A stretch of DNA of 12,002 nt, from NCBI GenBank assembly GCA_963813155.1, contig CAWEYG010000018.1, forward strand, positions 1 through 12,002, in the 5' to 3' direction. Positions within the stretch are counted from its first letter, which is position 1. Each line of letters starts with the position of its first letter. The stretch comes from an uncultured Acidobacteriota bacterium (GTDB lineage: Bacteria > Acidobacteriota > Thermoanaerobaculia > UBA5066 > DATFVB01). A model generated the notes under the pieces. That model worked only from the letters and a program-made list of their open reading frames with translations, searched no databases and had not been told where the DNA came from. The translations under genes were made by a program, and so were the position numbers. Positions 102-11,981 of this stretch are shown here, one piece after another.

Positions 102-117
102 TGGCAGAGGATTTGCA
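102..117 (+). promoter_or_regulatory. sigma-54 (-24/-12) promoter of the LPKTA protein gene
   Basis: TGGCAGAGGATTTGCA has exact GG-N10-GC spacing with TGGCA and TTGCA cores. It is intergenic, 26 nt upstream of ATG144, with SD GAAGGAG at 131-137. Confidence 0.75.
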
Positions 118-143
118 TTTCTCCGCCCTTGAAGGAGAAACCG

Positions 144-782
144 ATGAAATATCTGAAAACCCTCTTCGCATCCATGGCGTTCCTCGGGTTCGCGAACCTG
201 ATGGTGGCTCAGGGATCGACGCCGGTCCAGCGCAACACCAAGATCAACGTCTCGGAACCGACCGAAGTGTCCGGCACGGTATTGCAGCCCGGCACGTACA
301 CCCTGAAGGTCCTCGATTTCAAGGACGGCAAGGTGCAGGTGCAGGTCAGCGACGAGAACGACAAGAACATCCTCACGACCGTCGTGACCCAGAAGGTCCG
401 CCGCAATCTCGACACCAAGCAGCAGACCGACGAGCAGGCGCAGTTCACGTACACGAGCGCGAACGGCCATCCCGCTCTCGACACCTGGTTCTATCCGGGC
501 GACGAGTGGGGCGAGAAGTTCACGACCGGCAAGGCGACCTGGGTCGCGGAGAACGTCGGAACCGTGACGCAGACCCCGATGCAGACCGAAACGAAGACCA
601 CGGAAATCGCCGAAGCCCCCGCTCCGGCTCCCGCGCCGATCGCCGAAAATAACGCGCCCGCCCCCGAACCGGCCCCCGCGCCGACGGAGCTGCCGAAGAC
701 CGCCAGCGATCTTCCTCTCCTCGGACTCGCCGGCCTTCTCGCGGTTGGCGGCGCCGCCGGAGTGCACCTCCTGCGGAAATAG
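144..782 (+). CDS. Secreted protein with C-terminal LPxTA sortase sorting signal
   Basis: SD GAAGGAG precedes ATG144, which is preferred over TTG129. The protein has a signal peptide (MKYLKTLFASMAFLGFANLMVAQ), a beta-rich domain ending WFYPGDEWG, a Thr/Pro/Ala linker, then LPKTAS + hydrophobic helix + LLRK stop. Confidence 0.85.
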   Translation: MKYLKTLFASMAFLGFANLMVAQGSTPVQRNTKINVSEPTEVSGTVLQPGTYTLKVLDFKDGKVQVQVSDENDKNILTTVVTQKVRRNLDTKQQTDEQAQFTYTSANGHPALDTWFYPGDEWGEKFTTGKATWVAENVGTVTQTPMQTETKTTEIAEAPAPAPAPIAENNAPAPEPAPAPTELPKTASDLPLLGLAGLLAVGGAAGVHLLRK

Positions 783-804
783 CCCTTCCTGAGGATTCTT
801 TTCG

Positions 805-837
805 AGCGCCGGATGCGAAGATCCGGCGCTTTTTTTT
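805..837 (+). terminator. Rho-independent terminator
   Basis: Perfect 10-bp stem AGCGCCGGAT-gcgaag-ATCCGGCGCT followed by a T run, 22 nt after the stop at 782. Confidence 0.9.
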
Positions 838-853
838 CTATAATCTCGGCGAA

Positions 854-1621
854 TTGCCGCCGCAAGCGAGCGTTTCCCCCGTCGAGCCGCTGGTCGAGCT
901 GCGCGGAGTTCGCAAGAGTTTCGGCGGCACCCCCGCGCTTTCGGGGGTGGAGCTCCGGGTATTCCCCGGCGAGACCGTCGCGCTGATCGGACCGAGCGGT
1001 TCCGGGAAGTCGACGATCCTGCGCCTCGTCCTCGGGCTCGCCCCTCCGAACGAAGGAACCGTCCTGTTCCGCGGCGAGAGGGTCGCGCCCCGGAACGCGC
1101 TCGCCGTTCGCCGCGGGATCGGATACGTCGTCCAGGACGGGGGTCTCTTTCCCCACCTGACGGCGAGGGACAACGTCCTGCTGCTCGGCCGCCACCTCCG
1201 GAGGAGCGAGTCGGAGCTTCGGCTGCGCCTGGAGGAGCTCGCGGCGCTCACACGGTTTCCTCTCGACGCGCTGTCCCGGTATCCGTCGGAACTCTCGGGC
1301 GGCCAGCGCCAGAGGGTCGGGCTGATGCGGGCCCTGCTTCTCGACCCGGAGCTGCTCCTCCTCGACGAGCCGCTCGCCGCCCTCGATCCCATGGTGAGAT
1401 CGAAGCTGCAGGAAGACCTCCGCGAGATCTTTCGCCGTCTTTCCCGGACGGTGGTGCTCGTCACGCACGACCTCGCGGAGGCCTCCTTCCTCGCCGACCG
1501 GATCGTCCTGCTGAACGAGGGGTCCATCGTCCAGGAAGGCTCGCTCGGAGATCTCCGGGACAGTCCCGCGAACCCCTTCGTGGCGGAGTTCGTCCGATCG
1601 CAGAGGGGCCTGTCGTGCTGA
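854..1621 (+). CDS. ABC transporter ATP-binding subunit, osmoprotectant (OpuA/ProV/OsmV-like) family, no CBS domains
   Basis: Walker A GPSGSGKS, Q-loop IGYVVQDGGLFPH, signature LSGGQRQR, Walker B LLLDEP, H-loop VTHD and C-terminal PANPFVAEF. The start codon is uncertain. Confidence 0.9.
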   Translation: MPPQASVSPVEPLVELRGVRKSFGGTPALSGVELRVFPGETVALIGPSGSGKSTILRLVLGLAPPNEGTVLFRGERVAPRNALAVRRGIGYVVQDGGLFPHLTARDNVLLLGRHLRRSESELRLRLEELAALTRFPLDALSRYPSELSGGQRQRVGLMRALLLDPELLLLDEPLAALDPMVRSKLQEDLREIFRRLSRTVVLVTHDLAEASFLADRIVLLNEGSIVQEGSLGDLRDSPANPFVAEFVRSQRGLSC

Positions 1622-3087
1622 AACGGCTGTTGCTGCTGTCTCTCGCCGCGGCGATCCCGACGCGTGCGGGAGCCCGCCCCGTGGCGGTCGGTTCGAAGAA
1701 GTTCACGGAGTCGTATGCGCTGGCGGAGATCGCGAAAACGGCGCTCGGCCGCGCCGGCGTCGCGGCGGAGCACCGGCCGGGAATGGGCGGCACGATCATC
1801 CTGTGGCAGGCGCTGAAAACGCGCGCGATCGACGTCTACCCGGAATACACGGGCACGATCTCCGAGGAGATCCTGCGGCGCCCGGACCGGCCGTCCCTGG
1901 CCGCGATTCGAGCCGCGCTCGCGCCCCTCGGGGTCTCGATGACGGATCCCCTCGGTTTCGACAACACGTACGCGCTCGTCATGCGGAGGACGCGCGCGGG
2001 GGAGCTCGGAATCCGGACGATCGGCGACCTTCGGCAGCACCCGGAGATCGCGGTCGGCCTGACCCACGAGTTCCTGAAGCGACGGGACGGCTGGGAGCCC
2101 CTCGCGGCCCGCTACGCGCTTTCGATGCGCGACGTCCGCGGCGTGGACCACGCCATCGGTTACGCCGCGCTCGCGGCCGGGGCCCTCGACGTCAAGGACG
2201 CGTACTCGACCGACGCGCGCATCGCGCAGGACGACCTCGTCGTTCTCCAGGACGACCGGGGCTACTTTCCGCAGTACCAGGCCGTTTTTCTCTACCGCGC
2301 GGATCTCCCGCGCCCCGCTGTCGCCGCGCTCGCGTCCCTGTCCGGAACGCTCGACGAGGCCGCGATGACGCGCCTGAATGCGGAGGCCGAACGCACGAAA
2401 AATTACGCGGCGGCCGCGGCCCTGTACTTCGGCGCGCGAACCGGCGCGGCGCGGAGCCCGGCGGCCCAGATCGGCCGGTGGACGGCGCGCCATCTGGAAC
2501 TCGTCTCCATCTCGCTGGCGTTCGCCGTGCTCGCCGGGATCCCGCTCGGGATTCTCGCTTTTCGCAAACCGGCCGCCGGGAGCGTGATCCTCGGGACGGC
2601 GGGAATCGTCCAGACGATCCCCGCGCTGGCCCTTCTCGCGCTGCTCGTGCCCGTCCCGTTTCTGGGGATTCGTCCCGCCACGGCGATCCTTGCGCTTTTC
2701 CTCTACAGCCTGCTGCCGATCATTCGCAACACGGCAACGGGCCTGCAGGACATCCCCCCGGGACTGCGGGAATCGGCCGAAGCGATCGGCCTGTCGCGAA
2801 GCGCGCAATTGCGGAAGGTCCTCCTGCCGATGGCGTCCCGTTCGATTCTCGCGGGAGTGAAGACGAGCGCGGTCATCAATGTCGGGACCGCGACGCTCGC
2901 GGCTTTGATCGGCGCGGGAGGACTGGGGGAGCCGATCCTGAGCGGCCTCAACCTGAACGATCACGCGACGATCCTGCAGGGCGCGATTCCGGCCGCGCTC
3001 CTCGCGCTCGCGGTCGAATTCCTGTTCCAGGGCCTCGACCGGGCGTTCATTCCGCGCGGCTTGCGCCTTCCCGCCCCCGACGTCTAA
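1615..3087 (+). CDS. Fused substrate-binding protein + permease of a glycine betaine/choline-type ABC importer
   Basis: Signal peptide, then OpuAC/OsmF-like SBP motifs (GSKKFTESY, YPEYTGT, GFDNTYAL, DAYSTD, FPQYQA). The C-terminal permease has QTIPALAL and the EAA loop ESAEAIGLS. It overlaps the ATPase stop by 7 nt. Confidence 0.9.
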   Translation: MLKRLLLLSLAAAIPTRAGARPVAVGSKKFTESYALAEIAKTALGRAGVAAEHRPGMGGTIILWQALKTRAIDVYPEYTGTISEEILRRPDRPSLAAIRAALAPLGVSMTDPLGFDNTYALVMRRTRAGELGIRTIGDLRQHPEIAVGLTHEFLKRRDGWEPLAARYALSMRDVRGVDHAIGYAALAAGALDVKDAYSTDARIAQDDLVVLQDDRGYFPQYQAVFLYRADLPRPAVAALASLSGTLDEAAMTRLNAEAERTKNYAAAAALYFGARTGAARSPAAQIGRWTARHLELVSISLAFAVLAGIPLGILAFRKPAAGSVILGTAGIVQTIPALALLALLVPVPFLGIRPATAILALFLYSLLPIIRNTATGLQDIPPGLRESAEAIGLSRSAQLRKVLLPMASRSILAGVKTSAVINVGTATLAALIGAGGLGEPILSGLNLNDHATILQGAIPAALLALAVEFLFQGLDRAFIPRGLRLPAPDV

Positions 3088-3097
3088 GATTCCGAAG

Positions 3098-4120
3098 ATG
3101 AAGTCTTCCATGAAGAAGCGGGCGATTCTCCGGGTTCTCCTGCTGGCGGCGGCTGCCGTGGCCGTCGGCGCGGCGGGTTCGAAGGGCGATGCGAAGCCGG
3201 ACGCGAATCGGGCGTTCGACCTTCAGGAGGAGATCGTTCTCAAGAATTTCCCCGCGACGGCGAAATCCGCGCGAATCTGGATTCCGCTGGCTTCGAGCGA
3301 CGATCACCAGACCGTCGAGCTGAAGAGCGTGACGAGCGCCGTCGCGACGCGGCGCACGACCGACCCGGAGTACGGCAACGAATCGCTCTACGTCGAGGTC
3401 CCGGACCCGTCCCGCGCCGACGTTCAATTCCATCTTGGTTTTCGCGCGAGCCGCCGAGAATATTCCGCGGGGCCGGCCTCGGGAGCGTCGAGCGCCGTCG
3501 CGAGGCCGCAGGACCTCGGCCGGTATCTCCGGGCCGACCGGCTCGTTCCGATCGACGGGAAGTTTCGCCAGCTTTCCGACGAAGTTACGGCCGGGAAGGC
3601 CTCGCCCCTCGAGAAGGCTCGCGCGATCTACGACTACGTCTTCCGGACGATGAAATACGACAAGTCGGGCGAAGGCTGGGGCCGCGGGGATTCCCTGTGG
3701 GCGTGCGATTCCCGGCGCGGGAACTGCACCGATTTCCATTCCGTGTTCATCTCGCTCATGCGGGCCCAGGGAATTCCGGCGCGGTTCGAGATCGGGTTTC
3801 CGCTTGCCGAGGCGCCGGCCGGCGAAATCGCCGGATACCACTGCTGGGCGGAGTTCTACCTGGACCAGACGGGGTGGGTTCCGGTCGACATCTCCGAGGC
3901 CTGGAAAGCGCCGGCGAAGCACGACTATTTTTTCGGCAGCCTGGACGCGAATCGAATCCGTTTCAGCACCGGGCGGGACCTGACGCTCGAACCCCGGCAG
4001 GCGGGGCCCCCGCTGAACTATTTCGTGTATCCCTACGTGGAGGTCGACGGAAAACCGTTCGAGGGCTCGATCGAGCGAAAAATCACCTACGCGCCGGCAG
4101 CCCCGACGTCGTCGAGATAG
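3098..4120 (+). CDS. Secreted transglutaminase-like (Cys-His-Asp triad) protein
   Basis: Basic/hydrophobic signal peptide. Motifs GNCTDFH (Cys), YHCWAEFY (His) and GWVPVD (Asp), plus LMRAQGIPARF. ATG3110 is an alternative start. Confidence 0.9.
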   Translation: MKSSMKKRAILRVLLLAAAAVAVGAAGSKGDAKPDANRAFDLQEEIVLKNFPATAKSARIWIPLASSDDHQTVELKSVTSAVATRRTTDPEYGNESLYVEVPDPSRADVQFHLGFRASRREYSAGPASGASSAVARPQDLGRYLRADRLVPIDGKFRQLSDEVTAGKASPLEKARAIYDYVFRTMKYDKSGEGWGRGDSLWACDSRRGNCTDFHSVFISLMRAQGIPARFEIGFPLAEAPAGEIAGYHCWAEFYLDQTGWVPVDISEAWKAPAKHDYFFGSLDANRIRFSTGRDLTLEPRQAGPPLNYFVYPYVEVDGKPFEGSIERKITYAPAAPTSSR

Positions 4121-4133
4121 AGGACGGCGCAAA

Positions 4134-4928
4134 GTGGATCTCGGACTTCAGGGCCGGGTCGCCATGGTAGCGGCGGCGAGCAAGGGAATCGGGCGCGCAA
4201 TCGCGGAGGCGCTCCTCGCCGAGGGATGCCGCGTTTCGATCTCCGCCCGCGGGAAGGAATCGCTCGAGGTCGCCGGGAACGCGATGCGGTCCCGCTATCC
4301 TTCCGGCGAAGTCCTCGCGTGTCCGACCGACGTTCGGAGGGCCGAAGAGCTGGAGCGCTGGCACGCCGAGACGGCCAAAGCGTTCGGCCCCGTCGACATT
4401 CTCGTGACGAACACGGGAGGTCCGCCGGCGGCGCGCTTTTTGGATCTCTCCGAGGAACAATGGGCCGAGGGCATTCAGCTCACTCTCCTGAACGTGATCC
4501 GGACCTCGAAGCTCGTGATTCCCGGGATGCGGGAAAAGAAACGGGGCCGTATTCTCCACATCACCTCGTTCGTCGCGAAACAGCCGTCGGACATCCTGAC
4601 CGTGAGCAGCACCCTGCGGGCCGGGATTTCTGCCCTCACGAAGACGATGGCGAACCAGCTCGCTTCGGACGGGATCCTCGTCAACGCCCTGCTGCCCGGC
4701 TTCGTGAAGACCGACCGGCAGATCGAGCTCGCCGTCATCCGCTCGCGGGAGGCCGGGATCTCCGTCGCGGAATACGAGAAGCGCAATTCGGCGACGATTC
4801 CGCTCCGCCGCTCGGCCGAGCCCCCGGAGATCGGGGCGGTCGCCGCGTTTCTCTGCAGCGACCGGGCGAGTTACCTCACGGGCGTTTCGCTCGCCGTGGA
4901 CGGCGGTCTGCTCCAGGGCACGTTCTAG
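4134..4928 (+). CDS. Atypical short-chain dehydrogenase/reductase (FabG/BKR-like SDR)
   Basis: Rossmann motif AAASKGIG, VTNTGGP, VNALLPG and C-terminal ASYLTGVSLAVDGG. The catalytic YxxxK is replaced by SSTLR. Confidence 0.9.
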   Translation: MDLGLQGRVAMVAAASKGIGRAIAEALLAEGCRVSISARGKESLEVAGNAMRSRYPSGEVLACPTDVRRAEELERWHAETAKAFGPVDILVTNTGGPPAARFLDLSEEQWAEGIQLTLLNVIRTSKLVIPGMREKKRGRILHITSFVAKQPSDILTVSSTLRAGISALTKTMANQLASDGILVNALLPGFVKTDRQIELAVIRSREAGISVAEYEKRNSATIPLRRSAEPPEIGAVAAFLCSDRASYLTGVSLAVDGGLLQGTF

Positions 4929-5044
4929 AGCGATCGGGCCTGGGCTCGCTCCGCGCAGGCGGATCTCTGAGATCCCGAGGGAAAGCGAACTGCGGCCGAG
5001 GGTCGAGGAGATCTGCCGAGTGGGAGCGAGCCTCGTGATCGTTC
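4928..5044 (+). other. Long imperfect rod-like hairpin (candidate structured RNA or palindromic element)
   Basis: Four nested stems: 4928-4935/5037-5044, 4943-4952/5023-5032 (perfect 10 bp), 4958-4968/5007-5017 and 4971-4975/5000-5004. Deviations within the stems are G-U pairs on the + strand. Confidence 0.6.
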
Positions 5045-5072
5045 AGGTGACGCGTGATATGGTCCGCGCTCC

Positions 5073-6698
5073 GTGATTTCATTCGCCAAGATTTCCAAGC
5101 AGTACGGCCGTCAGATCCTCTTCGTGGACGCGTCGTTCCAGCTGAATCCCGGAGAGAAGGTCGGCCTCGTCGGCCCGAACGGTTCCGGCAAGACGACGCT
5201 TTTCCGGATGATCACGGGCGAGGAACACGCGGACGACGGCGACGTGTCGGTTCCGAAGAAGCTGACTCTCGGCTACTTCCGGCAGGAGATCGACGAAATG
5301 TCGGGCCGTTCGGTGCTCGACGAAGCGATTGCCGGGAGCGGCCGGCTCGGCGATCTCCACCACGAGCTGGAATCGCTCCAACACGCGATGTCGGCGCCCG
5401 ACCGCGCGGACGAACAGGAGAGCATCCTCGCGCGTTTCGGCGAGGTGCAGGAGGAATACCAGCAACGCGGCGGCTATGAGCTCGAAGCCCGAGCCCGGGA
5501 AGTGCTCCACGGGCTCGGCTTCGAGGACGCGGCGATCGACGGCGACGCGGGAGCGCTCTCCGGCGGCTGGAAGATGCGCGTTTCGATGGCGAAGGTGCTG
5601 CTCGGAAAACCCGACGTGCTCCTGATGGACGAGCCGACGAATCACCTGGACATCGAGTCGATTCTGTGGCTCGAGCAGTTCCTTCGGGCCAGTCCGGCGT
5701 CGCTGCTCATGACCTGCCACGACCGCGACTTCATGAACCGGGTGGTGAACCGGATCGTCGAGATCGACGGCGGCGAGCTCATCGCGTACTCCGGCGACTA
5801 CGACTTCTACGAACGCGAAAGGCAGCTTCGCGAAACGCAGCGGGAGGCCGCGCACGCGCGCCAGCAGGCCATGCTCGCGAAAGAGCAGCGGTTCATCGAG
5901 CGGTTTTCCGCGCACGCGGCGAAGGCGGCCCAGGTCCAGAGCCGGGTCAAGAAGCTCGAGAAGATCGAAACGATCGAGCTGCCGCGCCGGCGCCAGTCGG
6001 TCAAGTTCGACTTTCGGCGTCCCGCGCGGTCGGGCGACGAAGTCCTGGCGCTTTCGAAGATCTCGAAAGCGTACGGCGAACGCCGTCTGTATTCCGACTT
6101 CGATTTCCTCGTCCGGCGCGGAGAACGCTGGTGCGTCATGGGCCGGAACGGCGCGGGCAAGACGACGCTTCTGAAGATGGCGGCGGGAGCGCTGCGGCCC
6201 GACGCGGGCGCCGTGAAGCTCGGGGCGAGCCTCACGCTCGGATACTTCGCCCAGCAGTCGCTGGAGCTCCTCGACCCCGAGCTGACGGTCCTCGAACAGA
6301 TCGAAAAGGACTTTCCGATGGAGAGCGTGTCGGCCGCCCGAAGCCTCCTCGGGGCCTTCCAGTTTTCGGGCGACGAGGTGGACAAGCCGGTCCGCGCCCT
6401 CTCGGGAGGCGAGCGGTCGCGGCTCGTGCTCGCGAGGATGCTCTTCCATCCGCCGAATTTCCTCGTGCTCGACGAGCCGACGAACCATCTCGATCTCGCG
6501 ACGAAGGAGATGCTCGTGTCGGCGCTCGCCGATTTCGAGGGCACGATGCTGTTCGTCTCCCACGACCGGGCTTTCCTGCGGGGCCTCGCGAACCGGGTTC
6601 TCGAGATCGGGGGAGACGAGCCGCCGCATCTCTACCCGGGGTCCTACTCGGAGTACGTGGCCCGGACAGGACGGGAAGCCCCAGGCGTTCACGCCTAG
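5073..6698 (+). CDS. ABC-F family ribosome-associated ATPase (YheS/YbiT/Uup-like)
   Basis: Two ABC domains (GPNGSGKT/LSGGW/LLMDEPTNHLD and GRNGAGKT/LSGGE/VLDEPTNHLD) joined by a helical linker (AAQVQSRVKKLEK). No transmembrane segments. Confidence 0.95.
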   Translation: MISFAKISKQYGRQILFVDASFQLNPGEKVGLVGPNGSGKTTLFRMITGEEHADDGDVSVPKKLTLGYFRQEIDEMSGRSVLDEAIAGSGRLGDLHHELESLQHAMSAPDRADEQESILARFGEVQEEYQQRGGYELEARAREVLHGLGFEDAAIDGDAGALSGGWKMRVSMAKVLLGKPDVLLMDEPTNHLDIESILWLEQFLRASPASLLMTCHDRDFMNRVVNRIVEIDGGELIAYSGDYDFYERERQLRETQREAAHARQQAMLAKEQRFIERFSAHAAKAAQVQSRVKKLEKIETIELPRRRQSVKFDFRRPARSGDEVLALSKISKAYGERRLYSDFDFLVRRGERWCVMGRNGAGKTTLLKMAAGALRPDAGAVKLGASLTLGYFAQQSLELLDPELTVLEQIEKDFPMESVSAARSLLGAFQFSGDEVDKPVRALSGGERSRLVLARMLFHPPNFLVLDEPTNHLDLATKEMLVSALADFEGTMLFVSHDRAFLRGLANRVLEIGGDEPPHLYPGSYSEYVARTGREAPGVHA

Positions 6699-6713
6699 CC
6701 GGATCGGACGCGC

Positions 6714-6746
6714 AAGAAAAAGCCCGGGACCTTTCGGCCCCGGGCT
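6714..6746 (-). terminator. Rho-independent terminator of the IPTL-CTERM gene, between convergent genes
   Basis: The minus strand reads AGCCCGGGGCC-GAAA-GGTCCCGGGCT-TTTTCTT: an 11-bp stem with one G-U pair, a GNRA loop and a U tract. Confidence 0.85.
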
Positions 6747-6777
6747 GGAGATCACGGGAGATCCGCGGAGCGCCGGG

Positions 6778-8058
6778 TCAGAACCTCCGGATCAGCAGAA
6801 ACGCTGCGCCTGCGAGGGCAAGCGCCATCAGAGCCAGCGCGGTGTTGCCAAGCGTCGGCACCTGGACGAGATTCGCGACGACCGCCGGGTCGACCGTGAA
6901 GTTGTAGGTGATCTGGCCCGAGCACGTCGGGTCGCTTCCGGATGTCGGCGTGTCGGTCGCGGTGACCGTGAAGCTGAACGAGCCCACGTCCGAGGTGGCC
7001 GGGGTCCCGCTCAACAGGCCGGACGAGCTCAGATTGAGCCAGGCTGGGAGCGTCGTGGAAGTGAAGGTGTACGTTCCGGCCGGTCCGCCGCTCGCCGAGA
7101 GCTGCTGCGAGTAGGCGCTTCCGTCAGTTGCGTCGGGAACGGTCGACGGAGAGATCGTGACCGCGCTGAAGCCGGCGCATGTCGGGGGAGGAATCGTGAC
7201 CGAGAAGCTTCCGCTCGTATTCGACGTGTGCTTGACCTGCGTGCCGCTCGAAATGTAGTTCGCAGGCGAGGTATTCGCGGTTCCGACCGAGTCGATCTGG
7301 AACGTGAAGATCTCGTCGTAGCAGTTGTTCGTCGTCAGAACGTCGGCTGTCGGGATCAACGCGACGTCGCGGTAGGGCGAATTCGCGTAGTTGGCGATCT
7401 GGATGTCCGAGTCGACGAACTCGAAGGCGTCGGCCGGCCAGGTATGTGAGGAAACCGGGCTGAAATAGAGAACCTTGGCGGCGCCCACGGTCCCGGTGCA
7501 TCCCGTCACGGTGATCTTTCCGAGCAGTCCGATCGTGGGGTTGTTCGGAATCGTGAGGACGGTGTTCACTTTGTTGGCATTGGCCTGAATCGTGTCCGCT
7601 ACCGTGAAGGCGAAAGGGAACGTTCCGTAATCCGATGCACCGGAGGTGCTGCCCACCTTGACGGTCAGCACCTGGGGCGTGGCCGTCGTCGAGCTCGCCT
7701 TCACCAGAAAGAAGACCCCCTTCGTCTCTCCGTTTGCGAGGCCGAGCTCCGCCACGGGATCGGTGCCGTGCGCCCCGGTCGATATCTTGAACTTCAACTC
7801 GTGGATGCCTGACCCGACGTTGCTGATGATCGAGCTCGCGCTCGTGTCGAGCGTGACCCACACGTCAGGGACACCGCCGCCGCTGTTCAACAGCTGAAAG
7901 ACGAGATACGTCGCGTCGAGGCCGTTGCCGAAGTCCGTGTACATGACGGAGCCCGACTCGCTCGTGACCGAGATGACGGGAACGGTAGCGCTTGCCCGCG
8001 AGCTCAGCGCGAGCGACACGACAACCGTAAGAAAAATCCTGCCAAGGACTTTATTCAT
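6778..8058 (-). CDS. Secreted protein with putative Ig (He_PIG-like) domain and IPTL-CTERM sorting signal
   Basis: SD AGGAGG and a signal peptide ending ASA. The body is Thr/Ser/Gly-rich, with the Ig motif LPAWLNLSSSGLLSGTP..GSFSFTVTATD. The C-terminus is VPTLGNTALALMALALAGAAFLLIRRF (motif + TM + basic tail, 6778-6861). Confidence 0.85.
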   Translation of the reverse strand: MNKVLGRIFLTVVVSLALSSRASATVPVISVTSESGSVMYTDFGNGLDATYLVFQLLNSGGGVPDVWVTLDTSASSIISNVGSGIHELKFKISTGAHGTDPVAELGLANGETKGVFFLVKASSTTATPQVLTVKVGSTSGASDYGTFPFAFTVADTIQANANKVNTVLTIPNNPTIGLLGKITVTGCTGTVGAAKVLYFSPVSSHTWPADAFEFVDSDIQIANYANSPYRDVALIPTADVLTTNNCYDEIFTFQIDSVGTANTSPANYISSGTQVKHTSNTSGSFSVTIPPPTCAGFSAVTISPSTVPDATDGSAYSQQLSASGGPAGTYTFTSTTLPAWLNLSSSGLLSGTPATSDVGSFSFTVTATDTPTSGSDPTCSGQITYNFTVDPAVVANLVQVPTLGNTALALMALALAGAAFLLIRRF

Positions 8059-8175
8059 CGTCTCCTCCTGTCTTTCGAAAACCGTCCGTTTTCAAAAGGC
8101 GGCAGAAGACGTTACCGCTTGCGCAACTCCAACGAATACACCGGTTTGTTCAATCCTCCCCAAGTTGTTAGAGCG

Positions 8176-8205
8176 ATATTGCCCGATTCTCTCCCGGGCT
8201 GTCAA
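8176..8205 (-). promoter_or_regulatory. Candidate sigma-70 promoter for the IPTL-CTERM gene
   Basis: Minus strand: TTGACA (8200-8205), 18-nt spacer, CAATAT (8176-8181), in an AT-rich intergenic region. Confidence 0.55.
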
Positions 8206-8225
8206 GAGATAAACAAGAGATAAAC
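8204..8225. repeat. Perfect 11-bp tandem direct repeat (AAGAGATAAAC x2), candidate operator
   Basis: Copies at 8204-8214 and 8215-8225 overlap the upstream edge of the -35 TTGACA. Confidence 0.75.
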
Positions 8226-8289
8226 GATCGATTTGATACAGGTCCGTCGATCGGAGTGAGGGAATTCAAAACTCCTGTGCTTGGACGGC

Positions 8290-9195
8290 TTAGTGGTGCG
8301 CGCCGGAATACGTCTTCTCGCCGGCGCGGACCTCGGTCGGCAGGTGATTCTGCGGGGGAGGGAACGGGCACGTCGCGTAGGGCGTGAAGATACACGGGGG
8401 GCTGTAGGCCTTGTTGAAATCGATCACGGTCTTTCCGTCTTTCGGCATCGGAGCGTACACGAAGCGGCCGGCTCCGTACGTTTCCTTTCCGTTGGTCCGG
8501 TCGCCGAAGATGAGGAACAGCTCTTCGGAGCCCTGCTCGAAAACGGGGTCGAGGCGATAGGTCTTTCCGCCGTGCTCGAAGGCGAGCGCTCCCGGCGAGA
8601 CGTCGTCTTCGGGGAAGCCGAGGGCCGTCGGCACCGCGATGTGTTTCAGCGGCGTGTACGGCTCGAATCGCGCCGTAACTCTACACGAGGGGTCGATCGG
8701 AAAATAGTCGAGTCCCTTGAAATTCTTCCGGGCGGGGCTCTCGGTGTCGCGAACGCGAACTCCCATTTTCTCTCCGCGGCGAATCACGAAAAACGAGAAC
8801 GTGCCGATCCGCAGAACGGTCGGGCTTCCGTTTTCATCCGACACGAGATCGGAGGCAGTGGCGGGCCGGCCGTCCGCGGTCAGGACCGCGCCGGGCGCGG
8901 GCTCGAGGCGAGTGCGCCCGTTTTCGAGCACGATCGCGCCGGCGACCGGAGGAACGCCTGGCCCGCGGAGGGAGATCTTCGCCTCGGGCCCGGACCCGAA
9001 AGGATTTGATCCCGGGTCGAGCCAGAAGAGTCCGGCGAGGGTGAGCCAGCCGTCGTCGCGCCGGAGCCGTTCCGCCCGCCGCTGCCTCCACGTTTCGATC
9101 TCGCGCCGGTAGCCGGGGTCCACCCGGGGGGAGCACGCGGTCGCCGCGAGAAGCGTCCCGAAGACCAACGATCGCCACACGCCTCTTCGCGCCAC
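8290..9195 (-). CDS. DUF1684 family protein, probable lipoprotein
   Basis: Motifs GWLTLAGLFWL, ETYGAGRF and DFNKAYSPPCIFTPYATCPFPPPQN. The start is moved from 9240 to in-frame GTG9195, giving MARRGVWRSLVFGTLLAATA-C, a lipobox-like signal. Confidence 0.85.
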   Translation of the reverse strand: MARRGVWRSLVFGTLLAATACSPRVDPGYRREIETWRQRRAERLRRDDGWLTLAGLFWLDPGSNPFGSGPEAKISLRGPGVPPVAGAIVLENGRTRLEPAPGAVLTADGRPATASDLVSDENGSPTVLRIGTFSFFVIRRGEKMGVRVRDTESPARKNFKGLDYFPIDPSCRVTARFEPYTPLKHIAVPTALGFPEDDVSPGALAFEHGGKTYRLDPVFEQGSEELFLIFGDRTNGKETYGAGRFVYAPMPKDGKTVIDFNKAYSPPCIFTPYATCPFPPPQNHLPTEVRAGEKTYSGAHH

Positions 9196-9216
9196 GGGGC
9201 GAGTATATCGGGCCAA

Positions 9217-9232
9217 TGGCACATCGATTGCT
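9217..9232 (+). promoter_or_regulatory. sigma-54 (-24/-12) promoter of the sortase operon
   Basis: TGGCACATCGATTGCT matches TGGCAC-N5-TTGCW exactly and ends 34 nt upstream of ATG9267. Confidence 0.8.
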
Positions 9233-9266
9233 CCCTTCACTGGCGGGAGTCGTATAAATTTCTCTC

Positions 9267-9923
9267 ATGGCTCGCTCGCGCGTTCTTCGTTGGACCGAAA
9301 TGCTGCTCTGGTGGAGCGGCGCGCTCCTGCTGGGCTGGTGCGCCGCGACGCTCGCGGAGTCCCGCATCTATCAGATCTTCGCGGGGCGCTCGCTCGATCG
9401 GATGCGGGAGAGCCGCTCGGCGGAGCGCAGCGGCGCCGCCGCCGCGCTTCCTCCGGCCGTCGACGTCGCCGGGAATACCGCGCCGGAGCCGGCCGGGGCG
9501 CCCGAACCGCGCGAACCCGCTCCCGCGCCGGGAAGCCTGCTCGGGCGCCTGGCCGCCCCCCGAATCGGCCTCTCCGTGATCGTTCTCGAAGGGGACGACT
9601 CGCGCGCGTTGCGGCTCGGGATAGGGCACGTCCCGGGCACGCCGTTTCCGTGGGAAAACGGCAACTCGGCTCTCGCCGGCCACCGGGACACGTTCCTGCG
9701 GCCTTTGCGGAAGATCCGGGACGGCGACCGGCTCGAGGTCGCGACGCCCCGGGAGACGTATCATTACGTCGTGGACTCCATCCAGATCGTTCGTCCCGAC
9801 GACGTGGGCGTCCTCGCGCCGGCAGGATCGGCCTCCCTCACGCTCGTCACGTGCTATCCGTTCTATTACGTCGGGAACGCTCCGAAGCGGTTCGTCGTGC
9901 GCGCGCGCCGTGTCGACGGCTGA
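9267..9923 (+). CDS. Class D sortase
   Basis: N-terminal TM anchor and Pro/Ala linker. Catalytic His in LAGHRDTF, Cys in LTLVTCYPF and Arg in APKRFVVRA. Confidence 0.93.
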   Translation: MARSRVLRWTEMLLWWSGALLLGWCAATLAESRIYQIFAGRSLDRMRESRSAERSGAAAALPPAVDVAGNTAPEPAGAPEPREPAPAPGSLLGRLAAPRIGLSVIVLEGDDSRALRLGIGHVPGTPFPWENGNSALAGHRDTFLRPLRKIRDGDRLEVATPRETYHYVVDSIQIVRPDDVGVLAPAGSASLTLVTCYPFYYVGNAPKRFVVRARRVDG

Positions 9924-10959
9924 AACCGGCGCCGCGCTGACGGCGTTTGAGAAGGCTTCGCCGGAAGTCCAGGCGCTGCTGAATCGGCCGATCAAGGACC
10001 TCGGACTGAAGCTGGAGGGATCGGCCGTCGAGAAGTACGTCCTCCGGCTCTACCGGGAGCTCGAGGCGAAGGGGCTTCGCCACTTCCGGCCTTCCTGCTA
10101 CCTCACCGACGAGTGGGGATGCCCCTCCGGCGAGCCGATCATCGGAATTCCTTTTTACCTCGCGGACCCGAAACTCGCCGCCCTGGAAAAGGCGATGAAC
10201 GACCTCGAAACCGAGCGCGAAATCCTGATGTACCTGCGTCATGAGGCCGGCCACGCTTTCAACTACGCGTACGAGCTGTACAAAACGGAGGAATGGCGGA
10301 ATCTTTTCGGGCCTTTTCGCCGGCCCTACCGCGAAGACTATCGCCCGGTTCCGTTCTCCCGGAGATTTGTGCGGCACATTGCCGGCTGGTACGCTCAGAA
10401 GCACCCGGACGAGGATTTTGCCGAGACGTTCGCCGTCTGGCTCACGCCGCGATCCGGATGGAGAAAGAAATACGCCGGATGGGACGCGATTCACAAGCTC
10501 CGCTACGTCGAGAAAACGGCGCGCGCGCTGCGGGATCGCGATCCCGTTCGGGCGGTCGGGTCGACGGACCTGACGGTCGAGGAGATGGAGACCACGATCG
10601 AGGATTTTTACCGGCAGAAGGCCGACCCCGGCGTCGCGGCCGTCGCGGCGGACCTCCCGCTCGATACCGACCTGCGCGATATCTTCTCCCGGCCGCGGGC
10701 GAGCTCGCCGCGCGGTGCCCGTCCCGCCGCACAGTTGCTGTCCGAAAACCGCAAAGAGATCGTGGACAAGGTCGCCTACTGGACGGGTGTGCGCCGCCCT
10801 CTCGTGAAGGACCTCGTGGAGTCGATCGAGCGCCGCGTCGGGGAGCTTCATCTCCGAGCGCCGCGAAACCGCGAGCCGAGATTTCTCGTCGAGATCACCG
10901 CCTACGCGACGACGCTTGCCATGAACTACCTGACCCGGGGAAAATTCGTTAACCCATGA
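9910..10959 (+). CDS. Putative zinc-binding (zincin) metallopeptidase, Peptidase_Mx-like
   Basis: HEAGH motif plus downstream YAQKHPDEDFAETFAVW carrying a candidate third-ligand Glu. No signal peptide. The GTG start overlaps the sortase end by 14 nt. Confidence 0.85.
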   Translation: MSTAETGAALTAFEKASPEVQALLNRPIKDLGLKLEGSAVEKYVLRLYRELEAKGLRHFRPSCYLTDEWGCPSGEPIIGIPFYLADPKLAALEKAMNDLETEREILMYLRHEAGHAFNYAYELYKTEEWRNLFGPFRRPYREDYRPVPFSRRFVRHIAGWYAQKHPDEDFAETFAVWLTPRSGWRKKYAGWDAIHKLRYVEKTARALRDRDPVRAVGSTDLTVEEMETTIEDFYRQKADPGVAAVAADLPLDTDLRDIFSRPRASSPRGARPAAQLLSENRKEIVDKVAYWTGVRRPLVKDLVESIERRVGELHLRAPRNREPRFLVEITAYATTLAMNYLTRGKFVNP

Positions 10960-11981
10960 AGGTCTCCGTGCTCTACGACGTCTGGGAAGAGGAGGCCCCC
11001 CCGCCCGAGGAGCCGCCGGCCAAGCCGCGAAAGGGGAAGCCGCGCCCGCGACGCCGGCACCCGAAGCTGGATCGCGAGCAGGTTTTCGACGCCCTCGGAA
11101 AGCTCGGGCACGACCCGTTCTACCAGGTTCTCGACGGCACCGACGCGACGCTCATTTCGGTCGTGCGCAACGGCGCGGACCTCACGTTCAACCTCACCGA
11201 GTCGTACGCGGGCGACGACACGTGCGACATGAACATCGGGGCGTTTCTCGATTTGCTCGGCCGGGCGTACACGGGCGCCGGCCCGCACGCGCTGTATCTC
11301 GCGCAGGACAAGGCGCTCGCGAAGAAGATCTTCCAGTTCCATGGAATCAAGACTCCCGTGTTCGCCCTCTCCTACAAGGGAAAGCTTCCCCACGCGCACG
11401 ACATCGGCTTTCCGCTCATCGTCAAGCCGACCTCGGAAGACGGTTCGATCGGCATCGACTGCGGGTCGGTCGTCTCGACGGTCAAAGAGCTGATGGCGCG
11501 CATCGAGTACATCCAGGAACGGTTCGACACCCCGGCGCTGATCGAGGAATACATCGAGGGGCGCGAGCTCTACGTCGGGATCCTGGGAAACGGCAAACCG
11601 GCGGCGCTGCCTCCCGTCGAGCTCGATCTGTCGCAACTTCCGGAAGGCATGCCCAGGATCGCGGGCACCGAGGTGAAGTGGGAGACGGAGACCGAGGCCT
11701 ACAAGAAGACGAAGGCGTCGATCGCGGTCGATCTCGACGAGGACACGATTCTGCGGCTGCAGGAGACGGCGCTCGCGGCGTACGAGGCGCTGGAGCTGCG
11801 CGACTACGGCCGGGTCGACATGCGCCTGCGAAAAGACGGCGAAGTCTTCGTCATCGAGGCCAACCCCAACCCCTGGCTCGCCGCGAACGCCGAATTCGCG
11901 ATGGCCGCGCGGGAGTCCGGGCGTTCGTACACGCAGATGATCGGAGAAATCGTCGAGCTCGCCCGGGCGAGGACGGCCTAG
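10956..11981 (+). CDS. D-Ala-D-Ala ligase-like ATP-grasp amide ligase (non-canonical)
   Basis: Motifs YTGA, QDKALAK, PLIVKP, EDGSIGI, EEYIEGREL, YGRVDMR and IEANPNP. ATGA overlap with the peptidase stop. Confidence 0.88.
   Translation: MKVSVLYDVWEEEAPPPEEPPAKPRKGKPRPRRRHPKLDREQVFDALGKLGHDPFYQVLDGTDATLISVVRNGADLTFNLTESYAGDDTCDMNIGAFLDLLGRAYTGAGPHALYLAQDKALAKKIFQFHGIKTPVFALSYKGKLPHAHDIGFPLIVKPTSEDGSIGIDCGSVVSTVKELMARIEYIQERFDTPALIEEYIEGRELYVGILGNGKPAALPPVELDLSQLPEGMPRIAGTEVKWETETEAYKKTKASIAVDLDEDTILRLQETALAAYEALELRDYGRVDMRLRKDGEVFVIEANPNPWLAANAEFAMAARESGRSYTQMIGEIVELARARTA

Follow-up and report, generated by a model that had tools for sequence, protein, structure and literature searches.

Reviews present sortase-mediated anchoring as a trait of monoderms, apart from a handful of uncharacterised Gram-negative cases (PMC8225981, PMC13721041), and sortase-assembled pili as exclusive to monoderms (PMC13721041). 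For Acidobacteriota in culture, Table 2 of PMC3174227 counts 6 sortases in Ellin6076 and 1 in Ellin345. Class D sortases use LPxTA signals, and SrtC of Bacillus anthracis attaches its substrates to DAP (PMC8225981). A different sortase, found in marine diderms and defined by TIGR03784, is adjacent to an LPXTG target with a vWA/inter-alpha-trypsin-inhibitor domain (PMC3237569). The PEP-CTERM/exosortase system (PrsR/PrsK/PrsT) also occurs in diderms, its targets end in a motif, a helix and basic residues, and monocistronic targets stand behind a -24/-12 box (PMC1569441; PMC9850573). Pilins carry a lysine in the motif WxxxVxVYPKN, close to where their N-terminal domain ends, and tip pilins typically have vWA domains (PMC5536039). 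A literature search on sortases in Acidobacteria, Acidobacteriota and Thermoanaerobaculia, with subscription journals outside its scope, returned no description of the present system.

The DNA analysed here (the window, 12,002 nucleotides) is the entire contig C18 of a Thermoanaerobaculia-type Acidobacteriota genome; all features below lie on its forward strand. It duplicates positions 407257-419309 of contig C2 with 94-95% identity, a strain variant within the assembly, and both -24/-12 boxes discussed below are identical in the C2 copy. The host had been described as a probable diderm, and its genome bears this out: it encodes an Omp85 of the BamA type (171.7 bits), LpxC and a MurE scoring above its cut-off (459.8 bits). 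The MurE carries the DNPR motif, which is a mark of mDAP specificity. The genome also has rpoN, and 16 strong sigma-54 activator domains were detected.

The gene at 144..782 encodes a secreted protein of 212 residues with a signal peptide (by inspection, about residues 1-22), a WFYPG beta-domain (residues 26-132; 219..539), a Pro/Ala/Thr linker of about 50 residues and a sorting signal (690..779) made up of the LPKTA motif (690-704), a hydrophobic helix and an RK tail. The preliminary description had recognised a secreted protein ending LPKTAS-TM-RK, with which the score of the C-terminus on TIGR01167 also agrees (17 bits; cut-off 15.9). An intrinsic-terminator-like hairpin followed by a T-run (804..831) suggests that the gene is monocistronic. 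In the host genome, this is the sole convincing sortase substrate detected by a C-terminal LPxT-TM-basic scan: a rough search for LPxT tails across every ORF produced many shadow-frame matches, and the motif-helix-basic form was restricted to this protein and its strain duplicate. The host is a diderm with one detected substrate and not an ordinary monoderm with many. The substrate family comprises 4173 clusters at 50% identity, and its sorting motif is LPxTA in 88 and LPxTG in 26 of 120 homologues. The beta-domain has a weak likeness to DUF2911 and no match to a solved fold. Foldseek returned zero matches at E<=0.001 with the full and the domain models, a structure comparison against 48,161 chains gave none at Z>=5 (best Z 3.7), and a PDB sequence search with query A1 gave no meaningful match; the domain is a candidate new fold, absent matches as such indicating neither a new nor a different one. 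The ESM Atlas matches to the family are solely unnamed, Acidobacteriota-rich clusters. Since natural tail-less copies exist, tethering is not required for the role of the domain. Two other sequences were discarded. P0121, with 22 repeats, was set aside as unrelated, and P0271, the only one of five matches among 89 long candidates for a domain-vWA fusion to contain a vWA, was rejected because its out-of-frame-looking middle and second signal peptide point to a probable frameshift artefact.

The enzyme encoded at 9267..9923 has an N-terminal hydrophobic anchor and an intact His-Cys-Arg triad (H139, C196, R208), and it passes the cut-offs of PF04203 (106.6 bits against 26.6) and TIGR01076 (78.9 against 39.35). 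It had been called a class D sortase. Class D models do give its best scores, but both fall under their cut-offs (NF033746, 124.8 against 165; NF058671, 132.6 against 140), and we accordingly term it class-D-like. The orthologue from genome G002 behaves similarly (134.8 against 140), and another sortase of the same order exceeds the NF058671 cut-off (142.7). The nearest solved structure is 2ln7, which we take to be the B. anthracis class D enzyme. The scores are well below the cut-offs of the class C (66.5 against 160) and TIGR03784 (88.7 against 158.25) models; true TIGR03784 members in the same order reach 205 and 216 bits and form a separate clade. In a quick tree (support 94), whose sampling is biased to substrate-linked sortases, the window sortase belongs to a clade of 94 rows, 80 of which lie beside the substrate family. 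The system shares with Bacillus class D (SrtC with BasH/BasI) its best models and nearest structure, the LPxTA signal, the few dedicated substrates and a DAP-type wall. It differs in scoring under both cut-offs, in its unrelated substrate family, in its sigma-54 boxes, in the lack of a sporulation context and in its diderm host, owing to which the anchored product remains in the periplasm.

A second sortase, 50% identical to the first, is encoded outside the window (C2:424022-424579), on the upstream side of the substrate at a distance of about 4.9 kb. By inspection its signal peptide looks cleavable, and the enzyme may be soluble. In G002, it is this second sortase, not the window-type one, that adjoins a substrate copy; given this arrangement and the two sortases per substrate, either enzyme may be the cognate one. 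The stop of the window sortase gene is overlapped by a gene for a Peptidase_Mx-like putative zinc peptidase (9910..10959), probably co-transcribed with it, which itself shares an ATGA overlap with a gene for a D-Ala-D-Ala-ligase-like ATP-grasp protein (10956..11981) that scores under every Ddl cut-off. The three-gene overlap recurs in 5/5 family genomes as well as in the host. Both downstream genes were nevertheless rejected as core parts, as their linkage to the sortase is confined to the host's family (f1): in f3 (17 genomes) the peptidase gene is far from every sortase and in f2 (17 genomes) it was not found, the cassette being intact in both families.

In the window, seven unrelated genes separate substrate and sortase, as first noted and as the gene calls confirm. 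Where Acidobacteriota have the pair, by contrast, both genes mostly belong to one operon, the substrate being a short way upstream of the sortase in 65 of 78 related loci, whereas in the host's family the two are split, each with its own box; in genus g2 the orthologues lie 1.7 Mb from each other or on separate contigs. All sampled genomes with a tailed copy of the domain have a sortase (21/21 in the class and 11/11 in the phylum sample, 28 distinct genomes), an enzyme detected in 60 of 121 genomes of the class and 35 of 201 of the phylum, and four sortase-less genomes with the domain hold tail-less copies only. These distributions strengthen the proposed link between sortase and substrate. 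A vWA gene of the TIGR03436 type lies between the two in 51 of the 78 loci; the four middle-gene vWAs tested all pass the cut-off (170-227 against 81.25), the cassette vWA partner has no sorting signal, and the window itself encodes none. All 41 searched genomes of the host's order lack the cassette-type vWA (best match 197 bits). The contrast initially drawn with the vWA-linked marine system was hence overstated in view of the relatives, even if the host's order is without the gene. The window system resembles that of TIGR03784 in its diderm host, its single substrate, the cassette and, through other Acidobacteriota classes, the vWA (PMC3237569). Yet the TIGR03784 target itself has the vWA, whereas the anchored protein here is a small beta-domain protein that is not adjacent to the sortase, and the vWA proteins of its relatives are separate and untailed.

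The two genes are each preceded by a sigma-54 -24/-12 element, TGGCAGAGGATTTGCA at 102..117 for the substrate (predicted +1 near 128) and TGGCACATCGATTGCT at 9217..9232 for the sortase (predicted +1 near 9243). Both are intergenic, upstream of the start and in agreement with the GG-N10-GC consensus. Within the window, the pattern TGGCA-N6-TTGCW matches at these two sites and nowhere else, 200 shuffles giving 0.01 matches on average, so that the remaining window genes are without a box, as had been stated. In seven aligned family promoters, TGGC and TTGCA are invariant and the spacer is variable. The expectation that the boxes would be conserved held entirely for the substrate (5/5 family genomes) and in part for the sortase (4/5), whose box is kept in G002-G005 and deleted in the congener G001. 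Across the phylum, the substrate box is found in 27/84 loci against 31/493 background ORFs with the loose definition and in 12/84 against 6/493 with the strict one, and 1 of 72 sortases has a strict box.

Sigma-54 appears to switch on both genes as members of a large set of envelope genes. In the host genome, TGGCA-N7-TGCW has 41 matches, of which 35 are intergenic (2.85 expected; six wrong spacings gave 1-3 each) and 31 lie ahead of a gene, about 28 when strain duplicates are left out. The raw count of the 16-nt motif is hardly enriched (22 against 18 for the reversed control), but its intergenic count is (21 against 2), the location thus carrying the signal. A hydrophobic N-terminus is encoded by 22 of the 31 box-led genes as opposed to 959 of 3283 overall, and these genes include an outer-membrane barrel, an L,D-transpeptidase, SLT-LysM, BON and DUF4398 proteins, an HtrA-like protease and PAP2. 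This envelope bias agrees with sigma-54 being viewed as a controller of the cell exterior (PMC3162934). A dedicated regulon, whose box would be confined to the genes of the system, is not supported by these counts, and the sigma-54 link becomes a side result, a sizeable envelope regulon in the family instead of a private switch.

The reading that we somewhat favor is anchoring of a class-D-like kind to the mDAP peptidoglycan of the periplasm, as part of this broad regulon, the sortase probably fixing the small secreted substrate to the cell wall. Sigma-54 and at least one activator would transcribe the two genes as members of the envelope set of roughly 28, to judge from their boxes. Sec would export the substrate, whose C-terminal helix and RK tail would hold it in the inner membrane until the window or the second sortase cut LPKT/A, forming a thioester on C196 as is expected from the family. 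A meso-DAP residue of lipid II or peptidoglycan would then resolve the acyl-enzyme through its free amine, and the beta-domain, hung from the wall on its linker, could serve as a scaffold for binding in the periplasm, reinforcing or organising the envelope. For other classes, gene order points to the secreted vWA protein as a likely partner of the domain. If the anchoring reading holds, Braun's lipoprotein Lpp is a functional analogue only, another small protein that a diderm links covalently to mDAP; the substrate has no lipid anchor and depends on a different enzyme, and Lpp was not found in the host genome (90.8% complete). Unlike Lpp, the substrate cannot be a general tether, as it occurs in a minority of Acidobacteriota. 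A sortase is thus paired with one small substrate family in a diderm class of a dominant soil phylum, and a single substrate of this size makes the periplasmic acceptor directly testable by MS.

That the two genes form a sigma-54 regulon of their own under a dedicated activator, on the model of PrsR, seems distinctly improbable. The boxes are real and conserved, the substrate box is enriched phylum-wide, the 16 activators leave room for a small sub-regulon and the PEP-CTERM genes offer a precedent (PMC1569441; PMC9850573). Nevertheless, about 26 further genes bear the same box, the second sortase has none in 6/6 genomes, the G001 sortase has lost its own, and the box is present at just 4 of 23 Terriglobia-type loci. 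Within 250 nt, no upstream 6-mer or short dyad specific to both promoters was found, a search that a degenerate or distant site would escape, and the best shared words recur in at least 5-6 of 25 other promoters; neither the window nor the flanking 30 kb of C2 has an activator gene. Unlike in the PEP-CTERM system, no second conserved upstream motif was found, and the enzyme is a true sortase with one target, not an EpsH-type membrane protein. That the window sortase is unrelated to the LPKTA protein, the boxes being real and the co-location fortuitous, is hardly credible: the intervening 8.5 kb, the dispersed g2 orthologues and the availability of another sortase would allow it, but the genome scan yielded no other substrate and the tree places the enzyme within the substrate-linked clade.

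The sortase could alternatively be a release protease, or transfer the protein to an amine outside peptidoglycan (a lipid, a protein of the outer membrane or a peptide product of the ATP-grasp enzyme), which resembles what is proposed for exosortase-type systems. The diderm context, for which no tested precedent is described (PMC8225981), the overlap with the peptidase and ATP-grasp genes and the possible solubility of the second sortase fit this view, but sortases of this type are transpeptidases acting on wall amines, and next to the intact cassettes of f3 and f2 the peptidase gene is distant or was not found, so that we consider it unlikely. A pilin-like polymer is improbable as well. The Thr of each subunit would be joined to the VYPK Lys of the next and the chain finally anchored to the wall, giving a sigma-54-induced, covalent and flexible filament or mesh within the diderm envelope with, in most classes, a free vWA protein as non-covalent adhesin. 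The family consensus ends W-FYPGDNFGQEF-VYPK, recalling the pilin motif, and the subfamily of the window retains the candidate isopeptide acceptor, Lys130 (531..533), which aligns with the Lys of F-V-Y-P-K, despite the loss of Y and P. The Lys is present in 131/169 non-redundant tailed domains against 7/84 short tail-less proteins, 59 of which end within 5 residues of the Phe. As in class C pili, a VYPK-like Lys closes the N-terminal domain, and vWA and sortase share a cassette in relatives, a vWA being typical of tip pilins (PMC5536039). However, the Lys is missing from 22% of tailed domains, among them the two full copies of the single-contig genome G004, and is present in 24/40 mixed 'tail-less' entries, many apparently frameshifted. 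The spacing is unlike that of the pilin motif, the class C score of the sortase is 66.5 against 125-133 for class D, the vWA partner is untailed and an outer membrane would obstruct a surface pilus. No pilin structure (CnaA/CnaB Ig-like) was among the fold-search rows, although a missing match does not exclude the fold. If true, the polymer would be the first built by a sortase in a diderm, and from a non-pilin subunit.

Finally, the sequence TAAATT (9255..9260), 6 nt before the sortase ATG, is conserved in each of the three genomes that represent the genus, G001 among them, and is a possible leaderless second promoter of the sigma-70 type for the sortase gene.

Within the window, TGGCA-N6-TTGCW has only two matches (0.01 expected), and these are the sigma-54 -24/-12 elements that the preliminary description had placed before the substrate and sortase genes (102-117 and 9217-9232). 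As had been described, the product of the substrate gene (144-782, + strand) has a C-terminal end made up of LPKTAS, then a hydrophobic helix, then RK. A terminator-like hairpin (804-831) lies downstream of this gene, and seven unrelated genes indeed separate it from the sortase gene (9267-9923, + strand). The sortase has the residues H139, C196 and R208, and its closest solved structure is 2ln7. Its proposed assignment to class D stands only in part: class D models score highest and the mode of working would be the same, but the scores lie below the cut-offs of those models, so that by cut-off it is not a member. The window is contig C18 of its genome (G000) and a strain duplicate of part of contig C2 (94-95%). 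The assembly is a mixture of strains. Many small contigs among C7-C23 duplicate parts of C1-C6 at 85-99%, and in the version of the window found on C2 the ABC permease and transglutaminase genes are frameshifted.

Close homologues of the substrate carry the name Thermoanaerobaculia. The host had been called a probable diderm and, with a BamA-like Omp85 and LpxC encoded in G000, it is a diderm; the product of the sortase reaction would therefore sit in the periplasm. The genome also encodes a MurE with a DNPR motif, which we take to be linked to mDAP; Lpp was not found in this genome (90.8% complete). It contains rpoN and 26 matches to sigma-54 activator domains, 16 of them above 200 bits.

G000 has two sortase loci and one convincing sortase substrate. 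The second sortase (C2:424022-424579, - strand) is 50% identical to that of the window and is located upstream of the substrate, about 4.9 kb away. At its N-terminus a short hydrophobic stretch, closed by an AxA-like motif, leads directly into the catalytic domain (L194; orthologues L162-L166), so that the enzyme may be soluble in the periplasm. In a related genome (G002), a sortase of this second type is the immediate upstream neighbour of a second copy of the substrate gene. Among the best 78 of at least 559 confirmed matches, all titled Acidobacteriota or its subgroups, 52 loci have the order substrate-one gene-sortase and 13 the order substrate-sortase, while in the other 13 the 3 kb downstream of the substrate contain no sortase. 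The middle gene encodes a secreted vWA protein in 51 of the 52 loci, and the four such proteins tested all pass TIGR03436. The substrate domain was found in 23/121 genomes of the class and 14/201 of the phylum, and the sortase in 60/121 and 35/201; 21/23 and 12/14 of the respective domain-bearing genomes also have a sortase, in counts where related genomes are not independent and first-pass scoring was limited to a certain number of candidates in each genome. The four domain-bearing genomes without sortase (G013, G025, G167, G178) have tail-less copies only; thus, a sortase is present in every one of the 28 distinct genomes that carry a tailed copy. One unpublished genome (G008) counts once in the order, class and phylum tallies and once as a tree row, and no conclusion rests on it. 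The sortase system is a real feature, and a chance co-location of substrate and sortase is extremely improbable. In the 41 genomes of the host's order, no vWA protein of the cassette type was found (best score 197 bits, versus more than 400 for cassette members on a similar profile), so the system in this order consists of substrate and sortase only. Tail-less domain copies in G049 still adjoin a vWA gene, a hint that the domain and the vWA protein are linked whether or not the domain is anchored.

A quick tree was built from 116 sortase domains, with sampling weighted toward substrate-linked sortases; in it, both G000 enzymes belong to a 94-row clade (support 94) in which 80 rows adjoin the substrate family. 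This clade is separate from the true TIGR03784 enzymes and from a 13-row clade, seven rows of which adjoin a different LPxT-tailed protein. Other sortase lineages were also observed. In a second Thermoanaerobaculia cassette (L007, L013, L019, L021, L028, L034), the sortase adjoins a secreted LPKTG protein that contains repeated beta units resembling 'TEVKNGTV' and matches no NCBIfam model; these sortases form their own clade. Loci L029 and L031, from the host's order, hold true 'marine' sortases of the TIGR03784 type (205 and 216 bits), and the highly divergent sortases of L139 and L141 adjoin further LPxTA proteins.

The substrate domain family comprises 4173 clusters at 50% identity. It has no Pfam model, and DUF2911 matches 20/39 members weakly, always below cut-off. 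The AlphaFold model of a relative's domain is mainly beta and confident (pLDDT 88.5), and the domain modelled for the window protein is similar. Tail-less versions occur naturally. Some form a subfamily of 127-128 aa, and such stand-alone domains are common (P0315-P0390 group; L159, L161); others are fusions, one of which, by inspection, has a BON-like C-terminus. The family consensus ends in FVYPK, whose Lys is present in 131/169 non-redundant tailed domains versus 7/84 short tail-less ones and aligns with K130 of the window protein. This ending resembles the pilin motif as presented in the part of PMC5536039 consulted, which could suggest that the sortase builds a Lys-linked polymer of the substrate. 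Yet the Lys is missing from both domain copies of G004 and the window sortase is not class C, and we regard such a polymer as unlikely.

The genes, signals, boxes, co-occurrence and cassette constitute the observed part of the system. The substrate would be exported by Sec, cleaved by the sortase at LPKT/A and transferred to mDAP, as by the class D sortase of B. anthracis (PMC8225981, in part); the outcome would be a binding domain tethered to the wall through a flexible linker and produced alongside envelope-remodelling proteins. Taken jointly, these steps are somewhat probable. Release of the substrate, or an acceptor outside the wall, is a less probable alternative that retains some plausibility. 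TIGR03784 sortases, to which the window enzyme does not belong, share the diderm setting with it, and share a vWA protein with the Acidobacteriota system of other classes (PMC3237569, in the sections consulted). The database label of the substrate is 'LPXTG cell wall anchor'. Sortases of two Acidobacteria were counted as 6 and 1, without comment in the portion of PMC3174227 consulted, and the Gram-negative sortases mentioned in the consulted parts of PMC8703055 and PMC1586193 are proteobacterial, plus one Chloroflexus homologue. No study of this system was found in searches of the open-access literature. The value of the system lies in its occurrence in a diderm phylum with a substrate whose domain matched no solved fold.

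The two boxes differ in their conservation. The syntenic substrate gene has its box 42-44 nt before the ATG in all five family genomes having that gene, and TGGC and TTGCA are invariant across seven aligned substrate promoters chosen for having a box; the box is missing in 6/12 family substrate copies outside G000. That of the window-type sortase is kept in 4/5 family genomes, G001 having a clean deletion across it, and the second sortase lacks a box in 6/6 genomes. Phylum-wide, a loose box precedes 27/84 substrate genes versus 31/493 background ORFs, and a strict one 12/84 versus 6/493; the strict box occurs at 1/72 sortases, in a scan window differing from that of the substrates. By title, the loose box is found at 13/21 Bryobacterales-type, 4/23 Terriglobia-type and 6/34 unplaced substrate genes and at 4/6 of close relatives. 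Judging from these promoters, sigma-54 control of the substrate looks old but patchy, and the separate sortase box would be a family feature accompanying the split operon. All three genomes of the genus, G001 among them, keep a TAnnnT hexamer 6 nt upstream of the sortase ATG, which may be a second, leaderless promoter. On the opposite strand (9195-9207), TATACT lies 6 nt before the likely GTG start of a divergent DUF1684 lipoprotein-like gene. Read as AGTATA, this element stands ahead of the sortase box in both genera, including cases in which the divergent gene is a different one. It could be a leaderless promoter arranged back-to-back with that of sigma-54.

The proposal that substrate and sortase form a dedicated sigma-54 regulon did not hold, as about 28 distinct G000 genes are led by TGGCA-N7-TGCW. 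This motif has 41 matches. With starts and intergenic regions assigned by a crude gene model of our own, 35 are intergenic (2.85 expected) and 31 have a start on the same strand no more than 260 nt away, or about 28 once strain duplicates are removed. Each of six wrong spacings yields 1-3 intergenic matches. The raw count of the 16-nt motif in G000 is barely higher than that of its reversed control (22 vs 18), whereas the intergenic counts are 21 vs 2; it exceeds the control in genomes of the window's family (f1), not in those of f2. No specific upstream word common to both promoters was found, and a dedicated regulon is very unlikely. Hydrophobic N-termini occur in 22/31 motif-led genes versus 959/3283 in G000. 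Of 19 led genes scanned, one encodes an outer-membrane barrel and belongs to a set of five near-identical paralogues that are all led by the motif; other matches include YkuD, SLT-LysM, BON, DUF4398, PAP2, DUF6600, an HtrA-like protease and a histidine kinase, and seven genes have no Pfam match. The led genes are mostly envelope and stress-like, including an L,D-transpeptidase and a lytic transglycosylase. This envelope bias agrees with the part that sigma-54 generally plays in the cell exterior (PMC3162934, whose consulted part does not mention Acidobacteria).

Several neighbouring elements were noted in passing. An IPTL-CTERM signal is carried by a secreted Ig-like protein (6778-8058, - strand) whose middle differs between the C18 and C2 strain copies; together with an exosortase-like gene (C3:124853-125362), this protein indicates that G000 has a second C-terminal sorting system. 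An intergenic REP-like repeat of about 80 bp (4947-5028) has 35 copies of at least 50 bp in G000. Finally, 9910-11981 holds a Peptidase_Mx-like gene, found in families f1 and f3 and not in f2, and a Ddl-like ATP-grasp gene.
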